From a phage: a stretch of 25,872 bases of DNA. Below are positions 4,419 through 22,027 of this stretch, one piece after another. The stretch is taken from the NCBI GenBank assembly GCA_020318295.1, contig GCA_020318295.1_4859.2. The stretch is one strand, 5' to 3'. The position numbers and the translations under genes are program-made. Under the pieces are notes generated by a model that ran no database searches, was not told where the DNA came from, and saw only the letters and a list, made by a program, of their open reading frames with translations. The stretch's first letter is position 1; every line of letters begins with the position of its first letter.

Positions 4419-4951
4419 TATGCATCGTCTCCGTAGGTTAACACTGCATCATCACCGATGCATAAAACAGTTTCTTCATCCAGACTTGCCACAGCTTCTT
4501 TTTCATTAAACGCCGTGAATGTAAAGGTAGCCGTCCAAGCCGGCGAATCGTCACTCATCGGTGCAATCAACGGCTCGTTTGTTGGTGTAATAACCCCTGT
4601 CGAGATGTCTTCACGTGACAAGTTTAAACCGCACAACTGGTTTACAACTGTCGCTAAATCGGCATAGGTGTCGCCGGGAGCTACAGTAACCAGTATCGGT
4701 CCTTGCGGGTCGATAATCTTATTAGCAGCTAGACGGTCGTAATAGACGGTAATCTTCTTACCGTTAGGTTTACGTGCTTTCGCAATGAACGCTTGCGAGG
4801 TACGGGCACTTTCAACACCTAAGTCGATAGGCCCTACCCCGCTTATCACAATCTCGTCAGGCGATAATGACAAGCCGTTATCGTGATTAATCAACGCCAC
4901 GACAAGCGCTTTCGACGAGAGTGTTAGGTCGGGCTGATAGCGGTCTGCCAT
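4418..4951 (-). CDS. Hypothetical protein (177 aa using ATG at 4951)
   Basis: ORF 4418..4990 trimmed to MADRYQPDL..., which has GGAGG 6 nt upstream; the longer N-terminus would run into the terminator A-tract. Confidence 0.55.
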   Translation of the reverse strand: MADRYQPDLTLSSKALVVALINHDNGLSLSPDEIVISGVGPIDLGVESARTSQAFIAKARKPNGKKITVYYDRLAANKIIDPQGPILVTVAPGDTYADLATVVNQLCGLNLSREDISTGVITPTNEPLIAPMSDDSPAWTATFTFTAFNEKEAVASLDEETVLCIGDDAVLTYGDDA

Positions 4952-4965
4952 TAACGCCTCCAGAA

Positions 4966-5006
4966 ACAAAAAAAATAAGCTACCACACATATGATCGTGT
5001 GGTAGC
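4966..5006 (-). terminator. Intrinsic terminator
   Basis: Perfect 10-bp stem gctaccacac/gtgtggtagc (4979-4988 and 4997-5006) followed on the minus strand by a T8 run (plus-strand A-run 4966-4975). Confidence 0.7.
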
Positions 5007-6771: not shown

Positions 6772-7104
6772 TCACTTATGTTTCTGTTTTTCTTCACGCA
6801 TCAACTTAGCGTTCAGGTCGACCATGTAACCCGGTTTTTCCATCACCTGCACTTCTTCCCAGTTGCTTCCCACCGCCATTTTGAGGGTTCCTTGACGTAC
6901 CGCGATTTCTTTTGCAGTGTCACGGCAGACCTCTAACGCTTCGTCCAAATCGTTAAAGGTTGTCTTCTGTGGTCCGTTAAAGGTTTTAGCGCATTCCAGG
7001 AATACACGTTCGTAAACATCCTGGTCGAGTAAGAGTGGTTTGTCCGCAGCGTGGACAACCATAGGCGCAACGAGTGCGCCTAACAGAACTAAAACTTTCT
7101 TCAT
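6772..7104 (-). CDS. Small secreted or periplasmic protein (110 aa) with N-terminal signal peptide
   Basis: MKKVLVLLGALVAPMVVHA-ADKP is a typical signal peptide with an AxA cleavage site; start overlaps the upstream stop as TAATG. Confidence 0.6.
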   Translation of the reverse strand: MKKVLVLLGALVAPMVVHAADKPLLLDQDVYERVFLECAKTFNGPQKTTFNDLDEALEVCRDTAKEIAVRQGTLKMAVGSNWEEVQVMEKPGYMVDLNAKLMREEKQKHK

Positions 7105-7586
7105 TATTTCACCATGTGTATAAGTTGATAACGTGGGGTTTCTTCTACCACAACATCAAAGGATGGAATACATGATATCTTTCCATTCAGGTCGAGATGT
7201 ATACGTGGTGAAATCATAATGGTTCCCGCACGCATCAGTTCAACCGCCTGGGCTTTGAGTGGGCCATGCGGAGTAAAATCTCCGCGAAGTTGAAAATGTC
7301 CTTCAACGATTCCGTAGCAAATATTTGACACGTACCCACAAACGCGATCAAGGTCGATGTCACGCACACGACGGTTGGCGTCTTCTAATTCCTTAAAAGA
7401 CCGGCACGGCTTAATAACCGGCGCATCGTATTCACAAAAGACGTGACCGCGGCGTAACGCCAGTGAGACAGCTTCATCCGGATGGTGCGGATCTTTGAAG
7501 TCCTCACAGGGTATTGAGAAAATTAAACCGCTGGCCGTCGCAACTGTTTGAGCAGGTATTTCCTTAACCTCAGTTTGTAGTTTCAT
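7104..7586 (-). CDS. Hypothetical protein (160 aa)
   Basis: ORF directly downstream of the HslU-like gene after an 80-nt gap; no recognisable motif and no HslV-like N-terminal Thr signature. Confidence 0.55.
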   Translation of the reverse strand: MKLQTEVKEIPAQTVATASGLIFSIPCEDFKDPHHPDEAVSLALRRGHVFCEYDAPVIKPCRSFKELEDANRRVRDIDLDRVCGYVSNICYGIVEGHFQLRGDFTPHGPLKAQAVELMRAGTIMISPRIHLDLNGKISCIPSFDVVVEETPRYQLIHMVK

Positions 7587-7666: not shown

Positions 7667-9427
7667 TTACGCGTTCTCTGTCCAAGCGTGACCACGCAGC
7701 GTTTCACCGCGTATGTCGTATTGCTTATATTTCGAAGAGTCGTAAGACGCAGGTAAGAAGATCTGATGAACAATATCCGCCAGTCGACGAGCGCCAAGGT
7801 TCTCTACAGCATTGGCTTCCATTGTTTTCTCAGCGATGAACGTATAGGTGTCCATGTCGTACTGCGTTTCCACCCCTTCGGTTTTCAACAACTTAATCAT
7901 GCCGTGGAACTCACTGTTATCCAACTTACAGATAGCAATCAGTGCCTCGGTATCCAGCGAAGACATTTTCGCTCTTAACGGAAAACGTCCCTGGAGTTCT
8001 GCCATGAGTTTAGAAACAGGCGCTTGAGCAAACGACCCAGCAGCGACAAAAAGCACATTGGTTGTGTCAACGCCATGATAAATACCCCCTTCAACCATTT
8101 TCAACAAGCTACGCTGCACACCACTACGGGATACACGTGCAGTGTGTTGCGTGTCAACCTCGATAAGTTTGTCAAACTCATCCAAGAACACCACCGCAAA
8201 GTTCTCAACGAAATCATGTCCATTACAGTTGGGTAGTTTCTTGAGGTCTTTGCGGCTGACTGTTTCTTTTTCTGGCACAACTGTTTCAGGTATCTCGTAA
8301 TGCCAAAGCCGTTCATCGGCGTATTTGGTAAATTCTGGAGAACCTTCGAACACGTCATCCCACCAACGACACCACTTCTCAGGATCTTCCAAACGAGACA
8401 ACATGCGAATAGTAAACGCTGCAGCGTCGATCGGGAGCCAATTAATGCCCGCCGGCTCGACGTCCTCGTCGTCGCCGTTAAACGTGTCGAACAAATCGTA
8501 GAAATCTGAGCCATCGGCACACGAGAGTGGCAGGTTATTTGACATCAGCGCTTGACCGGCATCAACGTATAAGTCAATCTGTTCGCCTAAAGCCATCAGC
8601 GACATAAACTCACCCATATACCCAATCGTGCCCGGTATATCACCATCCATTAACTTATCGACTTGACTTTCAAGTTCTTCACTATTCAACAGTTCAGAAA
8701 TTGACGAGACACCGAGCAGACTCCTTGCGATTTCCGAAATCTTATCTATCCATTCCTGCACAGTACGGCCACCGAGCGTAACAGAATAGATATCGAAGTC
8801 TTCGTAGGTTAAATTGTGTTGACGGCAATAGCCAACCATAAACGCGCGAAGACAATAGATGTCTTGGTATTCTTCGTACAACTCCTTCGGATCGAGTATA
8901 CCCTGACGCCGTAATAGTTCGGTGTGGTCACGTTTAGCCTGATACCGCAGCTGGCGCTCAGCTGCGCGCTCGTCTAGTTCGCGCTCAACTTCCTTACGGG
9001 ATTCACGCTCCCACTCTTCACGAGTAAGACGATTACCGTCTACTTCCGTCTCGACACGTCGTTTGGTACGCAGTTCGATATACCAGTCGGGCAATTCGAC
9101 AGAACGCGCTAAGTCGGCTAAGTCCTTGCCGATTGATGTAACTTCCCGGCCTACGTAGCCTGATTCTGTAAACGCGGTCATGTCGAGTTCCAGCACAGGT
9201 AAACCGAATTTAGTTTTCAGTACCCGCATCAACGCCGTTTTACCCGTGCCTGTTGGACCTTCTATTAAAAGGTTCTGTTTGTGGACCGACATACGGTCCA
9301 CTACGTTAAGTTTATTGGCACGGTATCGATTACGTAGCGCAATCGCCAGCATTTTCTTTGCCTGCGTTTGTCCATATACGTAACGATCGAATAGCGCCAC
9401 TATCTCAACCGGCGTGAGGTTTTCCAT
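7667..9427 (-). CDS. HslU-like AAA+ ATPase (ClpY-type unfoldase) with a greatly expanded insertion domain (586 aa)
   Basis: N-terminus TPVEIVALFDRYVYGQTQAKKMLAIALRNRYR and Walker A GPTGTGKT, TESGYVGREV, Walker B VVFLDEFDK, SRSGVQRSLLKMVEGG and sensor-2 ENLGARRL all follow the HslU pattern from memory. About 340 aa separate Walker A and B. Confidence 0.85.
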   Translation of the reverse strand: MENLTPVEIVALFDRYVYGQTQAKKMLAIALRNRYRANKLNVVDRMSVHKQNLLIEGPTGTGKTALMRVLKTKFGLPVLELDMTAFTESGYVGREVTSIGKDLADLARSVELPDWYIELRTKRRVETEVDGNRLTREEWERESRKEVERELDERAAERQLRYQAKRDHTELLRRQGILDPKELYEEYQDIYCLRAFMVGYCRQHNLTYEDFDIYSVTLGGRTVQEWIDKISEIARSLLGVSSISELLNSEELESQVDKLMDGDIPGTIGYMGEFMSLMALGEQIDLYVDAGQALMSNNLPLSCADGSDFYDLFDTFNGDDEDVEPAGINWLPIDAAAFTIRMLSRLEDPEKWCRWWDDVFEGSPEFTKYADERLWHYEIPETVVPEKETVSRKDLKKLPNCNGHDFVENFAVVFLDEFDKLIEVDTQHTARVSRSGVQRSLLKMVEGGIYHGVDTTNVLFVAAGSFAQAPVSKLMAELQGRFPLRAKMSSLDTEALIAICKLDNSEFHGMIKLLKTEGVETQYDMDTYTFIAEKTMEANAVENLGARRLADIVHQIFLPASYDSSKYKQYDIRGETLRGHAWTENA

Positions 9428-12329: not shown

Positions 12330-12383
12330 TCTCTTAATTCCTCTTTACGTGGGTTGTTTCACATAAGTTAGTGGACTGATGTA

Positions 12384-12425
12384 AATAAAAAGGGACCTCC
12401 TCACCCGTGGGCAAGGAGGCGGGCC
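12384..12425 (-). terminator. Intrinsic terminator
   Basis: GC-rich stem cctcct/aggagg with extensions, followed by CCCTTTTTATTT on the minus strand; abuts the stop at 12426. Confidence 0.55.
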
Positions 12426-12908
12426 TTACAGTTGGTTTTCTTCACGGTCGTCTGTCAGGACGGCAGCACAGATAAAGCGTGCGAGTTTCAATTTCGCAGC
12501 TGCAGTCTCCTCTGCAGACGGATTCGGGTCAACCGGCGCAGCCAAATCGACATCTGCCAGCTCTTCCGCGTATTTCTCAGCAGCTTCATCGAAGCCTGCA
12601 CGGATACCTGCCAGAAGGTCTTGTACTTCATCACTTGGCACAGGACCATCGATAAGAATCTTCTGAGCATCTGATGGCTCTACATCGGCAAAGTTCATTT
12701 CGTTCAACATGCCAATGCGTTCTGCGTTAGAGGTGATGAGTTGTGCCAACAGTTTTTCAAAACGGTTGATATGTTCATCGTCCAACGGTTGACCGGTCAG
12801 TAGCTCGTAGTAGCGGGCCATAAGTGTGTTCGCGTCGGCCCCTTCCTCATGACGCACGCCTAAATCAAAATCGTGCTGAGGGAGCTGACCTAATTCGATC
12901 ATATCCAT
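12426..12908 (-). CDS. Acidic hypothetical protein (about 160 aa)
   Basis: The track ORF begins with TTG at 12920; ATG at 12908 (MDMIELG...) has GAGG 7 nt upstream. Confidence 0.55.
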   Translation of the reverse strand: MDMIELGQLPQHDFDLGVRHEEGADANTLMARYYELLTGQPLDDEHINRFEKLLAQLITSNAERIGMLNEMNFADVEPSDAQKILIDGPVPSDEVQDLLAGIRAGFDEAAEKYAEELADVDLAAPVDPNPSAEETAAAKLKLARFICAAVLTDDREENQL

Positions 12909-12948
12909 AGTTAACCTCAACGGTATTTAAGGGTCATACAATGGCGAA

Positions 12949-13209
12949 TTACGCCGTTACCGGAACAGGGGTGATTAACAGCTCCCCTTCCACCTCACGT
13001 AACTGATAACCGTACATGACGTTGTAGGATTTAATACCGTCGCGCTGTTTGGCTTTCGCGACGAGTTTTTCTAACACGCGACTATGTGCACGAGTCATTT
13101 CTTCTTTCGAATAAACGACTTGGAGTACGTGCTGTTCGTCAATGACGGCACGAAACTGCATTACATCACCGTCTTCAACGTTGTAAACGACTTCTTTAGA
13201 CTTCGACAC
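12949..13209 (-). CDS. Hypothetical protein (86 aa, GTG start)
   Basis: GTG at 13209 lies 6 nt after the upstream stop, so translational coupling is plausible; no SD. Confidence 0.45.
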   Translation of the reverse strand: MSKSKEVVYNVEDGDVMQFRAVIDEQHVLQVVYSKEEMTRAHSRVLEKLVAKAKQRDGIKSYNVMYGYQLREVEGELLITPVPVTA

Positions 13210-13215
13210 TGTACG

Positions 13216-14028
13216 TTAATTTGCATTATCTTCTCCATTACTAGTTTTCAGAGTACGTCCGTACACATAACTTTCGGGCAGCCAACCGTTTTCTAATAAC
13301 CACATTGCGGCAGGCCCCCCAGTATATTGGTGGTAGGTGTAAATCAGTTCATCCCCCACCGGTAATTCAGACTGGATACAGTGCATCAACAGTCCGAACT
13401 CCTCCCGAGTTAGAGTAACCACCCCTTCTGCGGTAAACCATCCACCAATAACCCAGCGTTGTCCACGATGTGTGAGCACTGTCAGTTTGTAACTATCACT
13501 GTTCCGCCACGACATCATCCTCCCGCCCGTAACGAGCGTTGAGTAGATAGAGCTTTTACCGTAAAGCATTCTAACCCAATCCAAGAACGCTTTCTTACTA
13601 TCGAACAACGAACTGACATCCCCACAGAAATCCTCATCGTGGCTAGGCACCGATGAATTAATTTTGCGGTAGTTTATCGTTTCGCAACAAAAGCCCATGC
13701 GAGCATATTCGTCCCCTTCCGAACGAGTAAAATGCATCGCATAGTTACACTCCGCTGAGCGGAGTAAAGCATCCGCAAGCGAGGTTAACTGGGCGTCTAA
13801 AGCACGAACCATGTTGATAACTTCTAACATGTATCCGTGGTCCAGACAGAGCACGATCGCGTCAGGCGCAACCGTGTCCCGACTGAATACTTCAAAGATT
13901 CGGTAGTAAAGACGGCGTTCATCTTGTAACGTGGAAGGATCGATATCATTTAACAACGATAACGCTTTACGGTCTTCCAACCACGTTCGGTCCAGAATCC
14001 TCTCCGTGCGTTCGATAACTCTCAGCAT
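13216..14028 (-). CDS. Hypothetical protein (270 aa)
   Basis: ATG at 14028 with AAGGAG 5 nt upstream. Confidence 0.6.
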   Translation of the reverse strand: MLRVIERTERILDRTWLEDRKALSLLNDIDPSTLQDERRLYYRIFEVFSRDTVAPDAIVLCLDHGYMLEVINMVRALDAQLTSLADALLRSAECNYAMHFTRSEGDEYARMGFCCETINYRKINSSVPSHDEDFCGDVSSLFDSKKAFLDWVRMLYGKSSIYSTLVTGGRMMSWRNSDSYKLTVLTHRGQRWVIGGWFTAEGVVTLTREEFGLLMHCIQSELPVGDELIYTYHQYTGGPAAMWLLENGWLPESYVYGRTLKTSNGEDNAN

Positions 14029-14037
14029 ATTCTCTCC

Positions 14038-14841
14038 TTACGCAAGGGTGTAGTGATGCGTGATTACACGATACTCCAACCCTTCGATAGAAGGAAACTC
14101 GTGCTCTATCGCAACGCCCATGTTGACCTTTTTACCTTTCTGTCCCGCCAAATGCAAAATAGCGTGGTAGTGTTTTAGAAACTCTACCGAGTAAGCAACC
14201 GGGTCAAAAGTTTGGCAGCAGAATTGCTCAGTAATGATGCTCTTCGGGAATTCCTTATAAAGCATTAATGAAAACGGTTTCTGGCCGTGCAACCCCACGA
14301 ACGCAGAGACAAAACCATTTGCTAATTCACCCAACATCTCACGCGTTCCTGCGTCTTTTAGCGTAGGTCGCATTAGATAGCAAACATCCTGGGTTTGTTC
14401 TAATGACAATGTCTCCAACGGGACAACCGATGGGTCTGACGTAAAACCGTATTTCGGACTGACAGTAATCTCCACACGCTTCGTTACAGCTTCGAACCCC
14501 AGGCGCTGGTATAGTGCTGCGTGCTCAGTGTCGTGCGGAAAGCAGGTAATATCGAGCATCTGCACTTCCAGGAGTCGCGTTAAACGCTTCCACTCGTGGA
14601 ACAGGGGCTCGGAGAGCACGTGAAGCTCGTAGATGTAGTAAACAATACCTGAACGACATCCACGAAAATACATTTGCGCACGACCGCTATTGCTCAACAC
14701 TAACCAATGATCGTCTTCTTGGTCTGCGACGGGTCGCAAATCTTGAATCCGTTCGCGGAGTTGCCCCAAGGTGGTCAACCGACCACTAAACTCTACGGTC
14801 AGGTCGTTTTTGTCCATACCGTATAGATTAAATAGTTGCAT
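14038..14841 (-). CDS. Hypothetical protein (267 aa); possibly a degenerate GNAT-like fold
   Basis: ATG at 14841. The segment HDTEHAALYQRLGFEAV weakly resembles the GNAT C-terminal (Y-x-[KR]-x-GF) region; low confidence. Confidence 0.55.
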   Translation of the reverse strand: MQLFNLYGMDKNDLTVEFSGRLTTLGQLRERIQDLRPVADQEDDHWLVLSNSGRAQMYFRGCRSGIVYYIYELHVLSEPLFHEWKRLTRLLEVQMLDITCFPHDTEHAALYQRLGFEAVTKRVEITVSPKYGFTSDPSVVPLETLSLEQTQDVCYLMRPTLKDAGTREMLGELANGFVSAFVGLHGQKPFSLMLYKEFPKSIITEQFCCQTFDPVAYSVEFLKHYHAILHLAGQKGKKVNMGVAIEHEFPSIEGLEYRVITHHYTLA

Positions 14842-14850
14842 GTTGGTACC

Positions 14851-15669
14851 TTATAAGGTGCCGATTAGCTCCGTCACCGCTTTACGCTTATTCGCATCCG
14901 CAGACATATATCGACCTACTTGAACTTCGCGCCAAGTAAAGCCGTAATAAATATCGCGTGTGAGTAACGTATCTGCGTTTGACAGAACGACCTTATTGCC
15001 ATCGGCAGCTTGTTGTTTTAAAAGTTTCGCTAACTCGCGGTGGTCAGCTTGTGAAAATTCTTTGCTGTGATACTGCGCGTGTTTAGCCGTATCCGAAAGT
15101 GGGATGTAGGGCGGGTCGGCGTATATCACAGCGTTAGATGGGCACTTATTTAGGATGTCGCGGAAGTCCGCGCAGAGCAGCTCGACGTTGGTTTCCGAAC
15201 AACGTTTTGCCCACGCCAGAATTTCCTCTTCAGGGAAATAGACACCGTTCGGGTGTTGACCATAGGGCACGTTAAACCCACCCGACTGATTGTATCTGCA
15301 CAAACCATTGTAACCATGACGTGTAAGATACAGGAACATCGCGGCGCGCTGGAGATTAGGTTTCCCCGTGGTTGCTTCGCTGTTAAATCCCTCGCGTCGT
15401 TCCATGTAGAGACCGCGGTCCGTCCCATTTGCAAAGAGCGCCTTTGCTTCCAGAATCAGCGCTTCCGGACGATCGCGCGCCATGGTCAGTAACTCGATTA
15501 AGTCCGGGTTCGTGTCGCCGAGAATATAGTTCGGGTATTTAGTGTTTAAAAACACTGACCCTGCGCCCACAAAAGGTTCAACGAAATACTCAGCATCCGG
15601 AAACACCTGTAGCAGCTCGGGCAGTACACGACTCTTACCACCCATCCATTTTAAAATTGGTTTTATCAC
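14851..15669 (-). CDS. dam: DNA adenine methyltransferase (Dam-like, N6-adenine, GATC-type family)
   Basis: LKWMGGKSRVLPEL, FVEPFVGAGSVFLN (AdoMet-binding) and catalytic YADPPYIPLS (DPPY) match E. coli Dam from memory. Start is GTG at 15669, supported by the conserved LKW-GGK N-terminus. Confidence 0.9.
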   Translation of the reverse strand: MIKPILKWMGGKSRVLPELLQVFPDAEYFVEPFVGAGSVFLNTKYPNYILGDTNPDLIELLTMARDRPEALILEAKALFANGTDRGLYMERREGFNSEATTGKPNLQRAAMFLYLTRHGYNGLCRYNQSGGFNVPYGQHPNGVYFPEEEILAWAKRCSETNVELLCADFRDILNKCPSNAVIYADPPYIPLSDTAKHAQYHSKEFSQADHRELAKLLKQQAADGNKVVLSNADTLLTRDIYYGFTWREVQVGRYMSADANKRKAVTELIGTL

Positions 15670-15672
15670 CCG

Positions 15673-16674
15673 TTAACATCCTCTCATGCCAGATTGAAAC
15701 ATATCACTGATAGTCAGCCTGGTTGTAGTCTCCACCGGAATGCTAGGTTCTTCTTTCAGCACTCGATCGGCGCGGTTCCCATTCACCCGTTTCCAGCTAA
15801 TAAGTTCAGGATCGCGTTTCAACGTTAGTGTACGCAGTACCTGCTTGCAACGTAAGATGTTGCCGTACAGGTGATTTGCTGGATTATTATCAGCAGCTGT
15901 TTCAATATAGACTTGGTCGGAATGACGTTGTGCGAAATCGAATAGCGCGCCCATTAGCCGGCGGCCAATGCCACGTTTACGGTGTGTGGGTGCAACGGTT
16001 AAACCAGAAAGTTCAACGACGCCTGGTGTAACCAAGCGCATCTGGGCAATACCGACGATATCATGGCCGTCTCGCCAAATTGCAGTCTCCACATTAGCGT
16101 GCTGAATTCTTGCTATTACTGTTTCTGCTAACGGACCAATGTGTGTATAGTAGCCACGCATATCGTATTCTAGCTCTTCGCAAATTGCACCGCTAATCAA
16201 ATTCAGGATAACGTCTTTATCTTCCTTGGTAAGTTCTGCGTATGCATCACCAGAAATAATCTTGATTTCTGATGCGGTGATTACTTTGTCAAACAGTTTA
16301 GAATGACATGCCCAAACGATATCTGAAAGAACAAACCCTTTTTCGACCAGTTTTTGTTCAACATCGTCAGTAGGTGCTGGGCACGACATATATTCGAATC
16401 CGGTATGGTCGAGCACAAGGGCCAAACCAACTTTATCGAATGCCCCAGGTACAAACTCCTCAAAATAGTGACAGGTTAGTGTAGGGTCACCGTGTCGATA
16501 GGTGGCCACTAAATAACCCTCCCAGGTTTCTTTATTCTTCACCACGTAAACAGAATAAGTCTCGTCCTTTAGAAACTCTTTTAGGCGGCGTGCTCGTACA
16601 GTATCGCTGCCGACGTTATTTCGGAACTCGGCAGTGCGGATGCTGGTGCGAAACAATTTAGCCACAGTTTTCAT
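15673..16674 (-). CDS. Two-domain protein with C-terminal GNAT acetyltransferase domain (334 aa)
   Basis: Canonical acetyl-CoA motif LTVAPTHRKRGIGRRLMGALFDFAQ in the C-terminal half. The track ORF starts with TTG at 16797 and overlaps the upstream gene and terminator; ATG at 16674 (MKTVAKLF...) was chosen. Confidence 0.7.
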   Translation of the reverse strand: MKTVAKLFRTSIRTAEFRNNVGSDTVRARRLKEFLKDETYSVYVVKNKETWEGYLVATYRHGDPTLTCHYFEEFVPGAFDKVGLALVLDHTGFEYMSCPAPTDDVEQKLVEKGFVLSDIVWACHSKLFDKVITASEIKIISGDAYAELTKEDKDVILNLISGAICEELEYDMRGYYTHIGPLAETVIARIQHANVETAIWRDGHDIVGIAQMRLVTPGVVELSGLTVAPTHRKRGIGRRLMGALFDFAQRHSDQVYIETAADNNPANHLYGNILRCKQVLRTLTLKRDPELISWKRVNGNRADRVLKEEPSIPVETTTRLTISDMFQSGMRGC

Positions 16675-16730
16675 TGTAATGCCCTCAAAAGGTATTGCTG
16701 TCACAACATGAGGATAATGCGTAAAAAGAC

Positions 16731-16758
16731 AAAAAATTAAGGGGTCCGAAGACCCCTT
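16731..16758 (-). terminator. Intrinsic terminator
   Basis: Perfect stem aaggggtc/gacccctt with a 4-nt loop (TTCG on the minus strand), followed by TTTTTT. Confidence 0.75.
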
Positions 16759-16763
16759 AATGA

Positions 16764-18285: not shown

Positions 18286-18329
18286 TTTAGTGGACTGGAA
18301 GCAAAAAGCATAAGACTGTTCCGATCTGT

Positions 18330-18366
18330 AAAAAAGACAATACCCTCTTACCCGAAGGTAAGAGGG
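18330..18366 (-). terminator. Intrinsic terminator
   Basis: Perfect 10-bp stem ccctcttacc/ggtaagaggg (18343-18352 and 18357-18366) with a 4-nt loop (TTCG on the minus strand), followed by a T-run. Confidence 0.75.
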
Positions 18367-18996: not shown

Positions 18997-19058
18997 TTTA
19001 TTCTTCCCCAAAAGTTTAATTAATTGTAGTGGTGTCACAATATAGCGACCAAACGTAA

Positions 19059-19094
19059 AGAAAAAAATAAAACAGGCACCCCGAAGGATGCCTG
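19059..19094 (-). terminator. Intrinsic terminator
   Basis: Stem caggca/tgcctg around a loop containing CCTTCGG on the minus strand, followed by TTTTATTTTTTTC. Confidence 0.6.
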
Positions 19095-21559: not shown

Positions 21560-22027
21560 TTAAAGCTCCTTTACCATATCCTGGTATTCAGTTCGAAAAC
21601 CGAAACGTTCATAAAACGCAATAGCACGGTCATTATTACCGAGCACGTTAAGCTGCATCCATGCGCAGCCTTTTGATTTGCCATAGTTCTCTACGGCTTC
21701 GATCAGTTCATGGCCAACGCCTTGTGAACGAACCGATTCATCTACAAAAAAGTTATATACCCAGAGGAAACGTTGTCCCTTTTTGGTGTAGCCAAAGGTG
21801 ATGAAGCCAACAGCCACACCACGGTCATCAACGGCGCAAGCGCACAGCGTACCTTCACCCCAAACCTCCTCCAGTTTTGAGATTTGATTAAACCCTTCAC
21901 GACCGTTTAAGTCAGCAAGTTTTATTTTCTGATCGTCGTATAACTTGTTGTGTAGTCCTAACAAGTCCGCGTAGTATTTCTTTCCATACGGAGAGTTGGG
22001 CTTGGTGACAAAAACAATTTTCATCAT
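21560..22027 (-). CDS. GNAT-family N-acetyltransferase (155 aa)
   Basis: VDESVRSQGVGHELIEAV...AIAFYERFGF is a canonical GNAT acetyl-CoA-binding motif; start overlaps the upstream stop (ATGATGA). Confidence 0.8.
   Translation of the reverse strand: MMKIVFVTKPNSPYGKKYYADLLGLHNKLYDDQKIKLADLNGREGFNQISKLEEVWGEGTLCACAVDDRGVAVGFITFGYTKKGQRFLWVYNFFVDESVRSQGVGHELIEAVENYGKSKGCAWMQLNVLGNNDRAIAFYERFGFRTEYQDMVKEL

Follow-up and report, generated by a model that had tools for sequence, protein, structure and literature searches.

A predicted Dam methylase among diverged GNAT-fold proteins in a conserved six-gene unit of SPN3US-like jumbo phages

The window analysed here, a phage contig taken at its full length of 25,872 nucleotides (nt) (GCA_020318295.1_4859.2 of the NCBI GenBank assembly GCA_020318295.1), carries on its minus strand six genes that form one transcription unit conserved in SPN3US-like jumbo phages. 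We propose, with moderate confidence, that they constitute a conserved accessory and non-structural unit, in which a Dam methylase would ensure GATC self-methylation among diverged tandem-GNAT paralogues. The 4.6-kb region shares 97.7% nucleotide identity with the Salmonella phage SPN3US (genus Seoulvirus) and 94-98% with around 20 sister phages of Salmonella, Escherichia coli and Proteus, and its genes correspond to SPN3US gp104 to gp109 (SPN3US_0104 to SPN3US_0109). In the public annotation gp104 is a 'GCN5-related N-acetyltransferase', gp105 a 'DNA adenine methylase' and the other four are hypothetical proteins. SPN3US encodes a diverged homologue of chimallin (PMC9365700) and can therefore be considered a nucleus-forming jumbo phage.

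The unit opens with gp104 (15673-16674, minus strand as all six genes), which encodes 333 amino acids (aa) from an ATG start, followed by gp105 (14851-15669, 272 aa, GTG start), the predicted orphan Dam-family N6-adenine DNA methyltransferase, gp106 (14038-14841, 267 aa), with a predicted tandem-GNAT fold and located directly after Dam in every lineage, and gp107 (13216-14028, 270 aa), probably a very diverged paralogue of the same fold. The last two genes encode a small conserved protein (gp108, 12949-13209, 86 aa from a GTG start) and a conserved acidic protein (gp109, 12426-12908, 160 aa). The successive intergenic gaps measure 3, 9, 9, 6 and 40 nt, in agreement with a preliminary description of this DNA that had reported six tightly packed open reading frames (ORFs) at these positions. 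Several phage genera retain all six ORFs, with amino-acid identities of 25-85%, and these are therefore real genes. A scan of the region for Rfam families, tRNAs and meaningful repeats found none.

The core of this finding is ordinary: orphan Dam enzymes and GNATs are commonly encoded by phages, and the public records of SPN3US and its relatives already name both genes. Dam and GNAT genes of jumbo phages have also been surveyed (PMC7824862), and our literature search found no paper discussing SPN3US gp104-gp109. What is new is the predicted tandem-GNAT fold of gp106, devoid of the cofactor motif, its proposed paralogy with gp104 and gp107, which would define a narrow new GNAT-fold family, the delimitation of a conserved core, a promoter-like motif, and the avoidance of GATC alongside a phage Dam in a nucleus-forming phage. 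The genes next to Dam that had been listed as 'hypothetical' would encode extremely diverged tandem-GNAT paralogues, among which one domain still looks catalytic. These observations raise the question of why a nucleus-forming phage would need host-like GATC methylation, for which SPN3US is a workable model since an amber-mutant collection and proteomic resources are available.

The Dam-family methylase and GATC depletion

The gp105 protein is predicted to be a Dam-family N6-adenine methylase close to E. coli Dam, as the preliminary description had recognised from its motifs. It matches Pfam PF02086 (1.3e-53, 182.7 bits for a cut-off of 22) and the NCBIfam model TIGR00571 'dam' (255.6 bits for a cut-off of 114.85), and it resembles the orphan GATC methyltransferases of the E. 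coli Dam and DpnII M1 type, with a full-length alignment to the E. coli Dam structure 2G1P at 4e-57; against PRK10904, the equivalog model specific to E. coli, it scores 242 bits for a cut-off of 441. The motifs LKWMGGK, FVEPFVGAGSV and DPPY are all present. FVGAG is encoded at nt 15559-15573, within the EPFVGAGSVF segment at aa 31-40, and DPPY at nt 15106-15117 (aa 185-188); the FxGxG S-adenosylmethionine (SAM) motif I and the DPPY catalytic motif IV are invariant in seven aligned sequences. The GTG start gives the 272-aa protein and retains the N-terminal LKWMGGK. The public Dam starts of SPN3US (264 aa, RefSeq) and of the Erskinevirus Asesino (243 aa) are annotated too far downstream, and the conserved LKW..GGK N-terminus is lost.

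In E. coli Dam, the residues that read GATC or intercalate are K9, Y119, N120, L122, R124, P134 and Y138 (PMC4417163). The phage protein keeps equivalents of K9, Y119, N120, L122, R124 and P134, the first, second, third, fifth and sixth of these being invariant across the phage family and L122 conserved except for a Met in phiEaH2, another Erskinevirus; the contacts to the third and fourth base pairs are intact. The order of the motifs is likewise that of E. coli Dam, from the K9 equivalent through FxGxG, the Y-N-G-L-C-R-Y-N recognition hairpin and the P134 equivalent to DPPY. The two enzymes share around 40% identity and differ at Y138, which is His in gp105, and at R137, which is Gln; moreover, unlike E. 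coli Dam, gp105 is encoded by a virulent nucleus-forming phage with a GATC-avoiding genome. The adenine of GATC is the most probable target of gp105. The Dam of phages T4 and T2 is comparable in being an orphan GATC adenine methylase encoded by a virulent enterobacterial phage, but T4 Dam is distant in sequence (4e-10) and does not lie among GNAT-fold genes, and T4 DNA contains glucosylated hydroxymethylcytosine. Searches of Pfam, PHROGs and NCBIfam found no nuclease domain in the five neighbours of gp105, which is therefore an orphan methyltransferase, as previously suggested.

The tetranucleotide GATC occurs 39 times in the window for 103 expected occurrences (observed/expected ratio, O/E, of 0.38), which makes it the most depleted of the 256 tetranucleotides. 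In the corresponding loci of six relatives the O/E is 0.20-0.26, and in the whole 243-kb genome of phiEaH2 it is 0.30 (351 vs 1170), a depletion second only to that of CTAG. The latter is itself strongly depleted, with an O/E of 0.71 in the window and 0.26 in phiEaH2. Counter-selection of GATC in enterobacteriophages, with a proposed tie to the cutting of under-methylated phage DNA by MutH, is documented (McClelland, 1984, and Deschavanne and Radman, 1991, as summarised in PMC5014478). The strong avoidance in the window and its relatives fits a GATC-centred conflict, which we consider plausible. These phages appear to pair two measures on one tetranucleotide, most GATC sites being purged and a predicted methylase being available for the remainder.

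GNAT-fold proteins around the methylase

The C-terminal domain of gp104 is predicted to be a canonical GNAT. Pfam PF00583 is matched only at residues 194-270 (2.3e-14, 54.1 bits for a cut-off of 20.7), the matches to GNATs of the Protein Data Bank (PDB) are confined to residues ~183-271, and the acetyl-CoA motif RKRGIG is found at aa 232-237 (nt 15964-15981), the motif being less canonical in the orthologues of Erwinia phages, for instance QKRRIG. The two-domain GNAT architecture put forward in the preliminary description is therein supported for the C-terminal half; the N-terminal half is not recognisable by sequence, as Pfam and PDB profile searches gave no match for residues 1-150. Indirect support for a degenerate GNAT-like N-terminal domain, which would give gp104 the two-domain architecture of gp106, is provided by the structural match between the gp106 model and the model of the gp104 orthologue of the Erwinia phage Kwan (genus Wellingtonvirus, 317 aa, annotated as a 'GCN5-related N-acetyltransferase') in BFVD, a database of predicted viral structures (278 columns, TM score 0.68, E 1.9e-14), and by a weak hhalign alignment of gp104 with the gp106 family (E 1.7e-4, 204 collinear columns).

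A more complete picture is obtained for gp106, to which a weak GNAT-like motif at the C-terminus had previously been attributed; it is instead the whole protein that is predicted to adopt a complete tandem-GNAT fold. The AlphaFold model, built from a 10-sequence alignment, displays two consecutive GNAT folds (mean predicted local distance difference test, pLDDT, of 86.7; predicted TM score of 0.72), and its structural neighbours in the PDB, as retrieved by Foldseek, are tandem-repeat GNATs: the mycothiol synthase MshD (1OZP), MAB_4324 (7Q3A), VipF (6WQB), clavulanate ORF14 (2WPW) and a glucosamine N-acetyltransferase (5KF1). The sequence identity to these solved proteins is 5-15%, and in contrast to them gp106 belongs to a family restricted to one phage clade and lacks the acetyl-CoA loop motif in either domain. 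When 1.84 billion representative proteins were searched exhaustively with the family profile, 11 clusters only were retrieved, of 257-285 aa except for one fragment of 177 aa. None of the 7 + 10 family members examined has the motif Q/R-x-x-G-x-G/A in either domain, and gp106 is therefore predicted to be non-catalytic or to use an atypical donor; it is more likely a binding or adaptor protein without catalytic activity, or an enzyme with a different donor. Several solved tandem GNATs have just one catalytic domain. As R-x-x-G-x-G is kept only by the C-terminal domain of gp104, the latter is likely the sole active acetyltransferase of the set. The acetylation of a host target, suggested in the preliminary description for acetyltransferase-like proteins in general, can consequently be proposed only for gp104.

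The third candidate, gp107, is probably a tandem-GNAT-fold paralogue as well. When the gp106 model was compared with BFVD, its own orthologues came first, followed by the Kwan gp104 orthologue, and a phiEaH2 protein of 256 aa was also matched (E 3.9e-7, TM score 0.50); this target was taken as the gp107 orthologue since it is the only 256-aa protein in the full phiEaH2 annotation. Weak hhalign signals relate the N-terminal domains of gp106 and gp107 (E 1.1e-4, probability 56%) and gp106 to the protein found at the gp107 position in Kwan and in Huxley, a Machinavirus (E 7e-4, 146 columns), and the single-sequence AlphaFold2 model of gp107 is unusable (pLDDT 34). At the sequence level the divergence is extreme: gp106 and gp107 have no match in Pfam, PHROGs or NCBIfam, the search of half-proteins against Pfam at E = 10 gave no GNAT match, pairwise BLASTP among gp104, gp106 and gp107 returned nothing, profile searches of the gp106, gp107, gp108 and gp109 families against PDB sequences yielded chance matches only, and a search with the concatenated gp106, gp107, gp108 and gp109 alignments retrieved one irrelevant fusion protein only. 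We take gp104 and gp106, and probably gp107 as well, to be paralogues of great age that share a tandem-GNAT architecture. The previously noted pairing of the methylase with acetyltransferase-like proteins would in this case extend further than claimed, to gp106 and probably to gp107.

Several minor observations concern the same protein families. The gp107 orthologue of phiEaH2 (AFQ96575.1, 256 aa) is annotated short, with 16 N-terminal residues alignable with gp107 omitted. Weak BFVD matches to the gp106 model include A0A1B2IE03 (Kwan, 215 aa), A0A1B2IDM8 (Huxley, 214 aa) and two more proteins of 213-214 aa, these Erwinia phage proteins of ~214 aa scoring E ~1e-7 and TM 0.3-0.4; the expansion of the GNAT fold in these Erwinia phages may be larger than three genes. 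The 218-aa product of gp103, in the upstream unit, was considered as a further GNAT paralogue and set aside: it gave no hhalign signal, and the weak BFVD matches are to the 213-215-aa proteins of Kwan and Huxley only. A second and ordinary GNAT of the window, a single-domain protein of 155 aa (21560-22027, minus strand; PF00583, 9.4e-18), is encoded beside the gene of an annotated internal head protein, and it is also conserved in both Huxley and phiEaH2.

Among the two distal proteins, gp108 possesses an invariant K..RDG motif and gp109 an invariant LAR...L.DDR C-terminus; no relative of known function was detected for either in Pfam, PDB or NCBIfam. At the gp107/gp108 junction (13209-13226) the window has one T fewer than SPN3US, EC001 and SPAsTU (TTAATCG -> TTAACG). 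The conserved Shine-Dalgarno sequence and ATG start of gp108 (MQINRTVSK...) are consequently out of frame and yield an ORF of 21 codons, and because of this missing T gp108 can start only at the GTG at 13209, which has no Shine-Dalgarno sequence. The difference is either a genuine start-site mutation or a sequencing error.

Boundaries and conservation of the unit

The unit is delimited by two intrinsic-terminator hairpins on the minus strand, in agreement with the preliminary description, which had placed it between two terminators. The first (16736-16761), which ends the upstream unit containing gp103, has an 11-bp stem, a UUCG loop and a T-tail extending to ~16726; with -17.2 kcal/mol (z -4.9) it is more stable than any of 200 shuffled sequences. 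The second (12395-12420), which closes the unit, has an 11-bp stem and a T-tail and reaches -20.8 kcal/mol (z -3.6), again with 0 of 200 shuffles folding as well. Both are stable, GC-rich, intergenic and followed by a T-tract on the coding strand, which are the sequence features of predicted Rho-independent terminators, and no comparable minus-strand hairpin was found between them. Hairpins of the same type split the whole window into units, and the one upstream of the module is present at the equivalent place in all relatives.

Directly 3' of the upstream terminator and 27 nt before the gp104 ATG lies a promoter-like motif, TTTACGCATTATCCTCATGTTGTG (16702-16725, minus strand), of the form TTTACR-N13-TTRTG. 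The window contains five matches to this pattern for 0.09 expected, all on the minus strand; each shortly precedes the opening gene of a unit, and four of them directly follow a terminator hairpin. The further copies are located at 820-843, 12362-12385, 18309-18332 and 19036-19059 (minus strand; three of these four directly after a hairpin, and three ending in TTATG), the copy at 12362-12385 (TTTACR-N13-TTATG) coming right after the closing terminator. In all the related genera examined, represented by SPAsTU, ChrisDB, Huxley, Kwan, phiEaH2 and Asesino, the module is preceded by a terminator and then by TTTAC(R), a spacer and TGTG or TATG. The late promoters of phiKZ have a TATG core (PMC7598289), which the T(T/A)(A/G)TG end of the motif resembles. 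It is likely that TTTACR-N13-TTRTG represents a class of promoters for a phage RNA polymerase which organises the whole genome region. Neither the phiKZ-style early-promoter word TATATTAC (16 matches vs 20 expected) nor sigma-70-like promoters are enriched. Among the depleted tetranucleotides, TATG/CATA ranks second in the window (O/E 0.58) and third in the genome of phiEaH2 (0.57), which could reflect the avoidance of spurious TATG-type promoter cores. In addition, one GATC (at 18323) lies inside the motif at 18309-18332 and another inside the promoter that precedes the GNAT-Dam module in ChrisDB, at about 4951-4974 of the ChrisDB sequence analysed; given the rarity of GATC this hints at Dam-sensitive promoters, while being compatible with chance.

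Five lineages share the gene order GNAT-Dam-gp106-gp107-gp108-gp109, namely the divergent Seoulvirus SPAsTU, the Machinavirus phages ChrisDB and Huxley, the Wellingtonvirus Kwan and a 239.5-kb metagenomic contig, and the block also occurs in Erskinevirus without gp104, with protein identities across lineages down to 25%. Dam and gp106 are immediate neighbours in every case, at a spacing of -4 to +12 nt. The Erskineviruses phiEaH2 and Asesino lack both gp104 and gp103 and retain the terminator, the promoter-like motif, Dam and gp106-gp109; a local tblastn search of the whole phiEaH2 genome gave no match to gp104. The core of the module can therefore be delimited as Dam and gp106-gp109, with the head GNAT predicted to be optional, and not as the GNAT head gene plus Dam; the former is no obligate partner, since these Erskineviruses lack it genome-wide.

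Proposed role and competing explanations

We hypothesise the following mechanism for these phages, which are SPN3US-like, nucleus-forming and infect Dam-positive enterobacteria. A phage RNA polymerase would read gp104-gp109 from TTTACR-N13-TTRTG as one mRNA ending at the next terminator, and gp105 would methylate the replicating phage DNA at its remaining GATC sites, this DNA being enclosed in a protein 'nucleus' that may keep the host Dam out. The progeny genomes would thereby bear a GATC mark like that of the host, as expected in Dam-positive bacteria, and this mark, together with the purge of 60-80% of the GATC sites, would minimise attack at unmethylated GATC by MutH-type or GATC-specific nucleases. 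It can further be supposed that gp104 acetylates some target, and that gp106 and probably gp107 are degenerate paralogues which could be binding partners. The host-takeover and anti-restriction roles evoked in the preliminary description would be partly supported by these elements.

A number of points weigh against this proposal. The first-base-pair residue of E. coli Dam, Y138, is the one replaced by His in gp105, next to the Gln at R137, so that recognition of the first G is not assured. The mechanism presupposes a phage nucleus that keeps the host Dam out and imports the phage Dam, and the DNA of this phage family is thought to be shielded from nucleases in any case, which weakens the need for a protective methylase. 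The possible functional link between Dam and the GNAT-fold proteins is suggested by their conserved adjacency, which is no proof, and the GNAT head gene is dispensable in the Erskineviruses. As for gp107, its probable fold is derived from a third-party predicted model whose target was picked by organism and unique length. Finally, the literature search yielded no methylation, expression-timing or localisation data for gp104-gp109.

Another explanation, less probable in our opinion and yet a serious contender, is that the neighbours share no function and are independent accessory genes, co-transcribed and kept in order by descent in one clade: a Dam acquired for reasons of its own, an enlarged set of GNAT-fold proteins with unrelated host targets, and two small proteins. 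All lineages with the block come from a single group of related jumbo phages whose genomes are broadly collinear, with flanking thymidylate kinase and helix-turn-helix (HTH) genes in the same order, so that the synteny may reflect descent alone. The loss of the GNAT head gene while the rest stays, the presence of an extra gp107-type gene in ChrisDB and the very divergent protein at the gp107 position in Huxley and Kwan are equally consistent with this explanation. What it accounts for less readily is the adjacency, or 4-nt overlap, of Dam and gp106 in every lineage despite identities that fall to 25%, and the conservation of a terminator-promoter bracket around exactly these genes. Should a common function be admitted, it could differ from self-methylation. 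It seems rather unlikely, although conceivable, that Dam acts as a regulator, as in P1 pac cleavage or the control of Mu mom, or as a weapon that hyper-methylates host DNA and disturbs host replication control and mismatch repair during takeover, while gp104 acetylates a host protein, either an RNA polymerase subunit as with phiKMV Rac or a ribosomal protein. GNATs of jumbo phages have indeed been proposed to act on host RNA polymerase like Rac, or to resemble the GNATs of ribosomal proteins (PMC7824862), and the best NCBIfam match of the gp104 C-terminal domain is RimI, though well below the cut-off. More generally, phiKMV Rac and other phage GNATs have been proposed to modify host proteins, and gp104 is likewise a phage GNAT encoded in a non-structural region (PMC7824862, PMC7552054), but it differs from them by its proposed two-domain architecture and its linkage to Dam. 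The GATC sites in the motif at 18309-18332 and in the ChrisDB module promoter could be taken as regulatory targets; nevertheless, one GATC in five motifs is compatible with chance, and GATC is not evidently enriched between genes, where 2-3 of the 39 sites lie.

Two further possibilities assign a more direct role to the GNAT-fold proteins. We give little credence to the idea that Dam-gp106 with gp107-gp109 constitutes an unrecognised multi-protein DNA-modification or anti-defence system, with the motif-less tandem GNATs as partners of Dam; in such a system they might retarget Dam, escort it into the phage nucleus, or add an acyl modification at or near GATC. Least likely of all, and highly improbable in itself, is a pathway of DNA hypermodification in which GNAT-fold proteins act on DNA adenines in the manner of Mu Mom and the Dam-like protein targets GATC or performs a first step. 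Jumbo phages do possess Mom-type GNAT enzymes that acylate the N6 of adenine (PMC7824862), three GNAT-fold proteins lie here in tight linkage with an adenine-N6 enzyme, and gp106, without the normal acetyl-CoA motif, could use another donor. Its last rank is due to the fact that gp105 has all the features of an ordinary SAM-dependent Dam and that GATC is avoided, an avoidance that hypermodified GATC would make unnecessary. Moreover, the structural neighbours of gp106 are tandem GNATs acting on small molecules and proteins and not DNA enzymes, and no Mom-like name appeared among the Pfam, PHROGs and NCBIfam matches, which were compared by name only. GATC self-methylation by a Dam embedded among diverged tandem-GNAT paralogues is the reading that we favour.

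Some additional observations concern the public records and the surrounding genes. About half of the records of the SPFM Salmonella phages (LR5359xx) match the region only as dozens of short pieces and carry fused or cut-off proteins, such as a 524-aa 'protein' in SPFM8, and should therefore be regarded as frameshift-ridden assemblies rather than as biology. Elsewhere in the window, a gene at 7667-9427 (minus strand) encodes an AAA+ ATPase of 586 aa resembling HslU and ClpX (PF07724, PF00004), and the adjoining 160-aa gene (7104-7586), without a Pfam match, is called 'head maturation protease' in RefSeq. The ATPase gene is intact in the window as well as in SPLA3, 1252, MET_P1_082_240 and SPAsTU. 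EC001, Lh1B, JN03 and SPLA1a match only about its last 415 nt, and the SPN3US annotation has no gene of that length at this place; it appears that most of the ATPase gene has been deleted in those phages.

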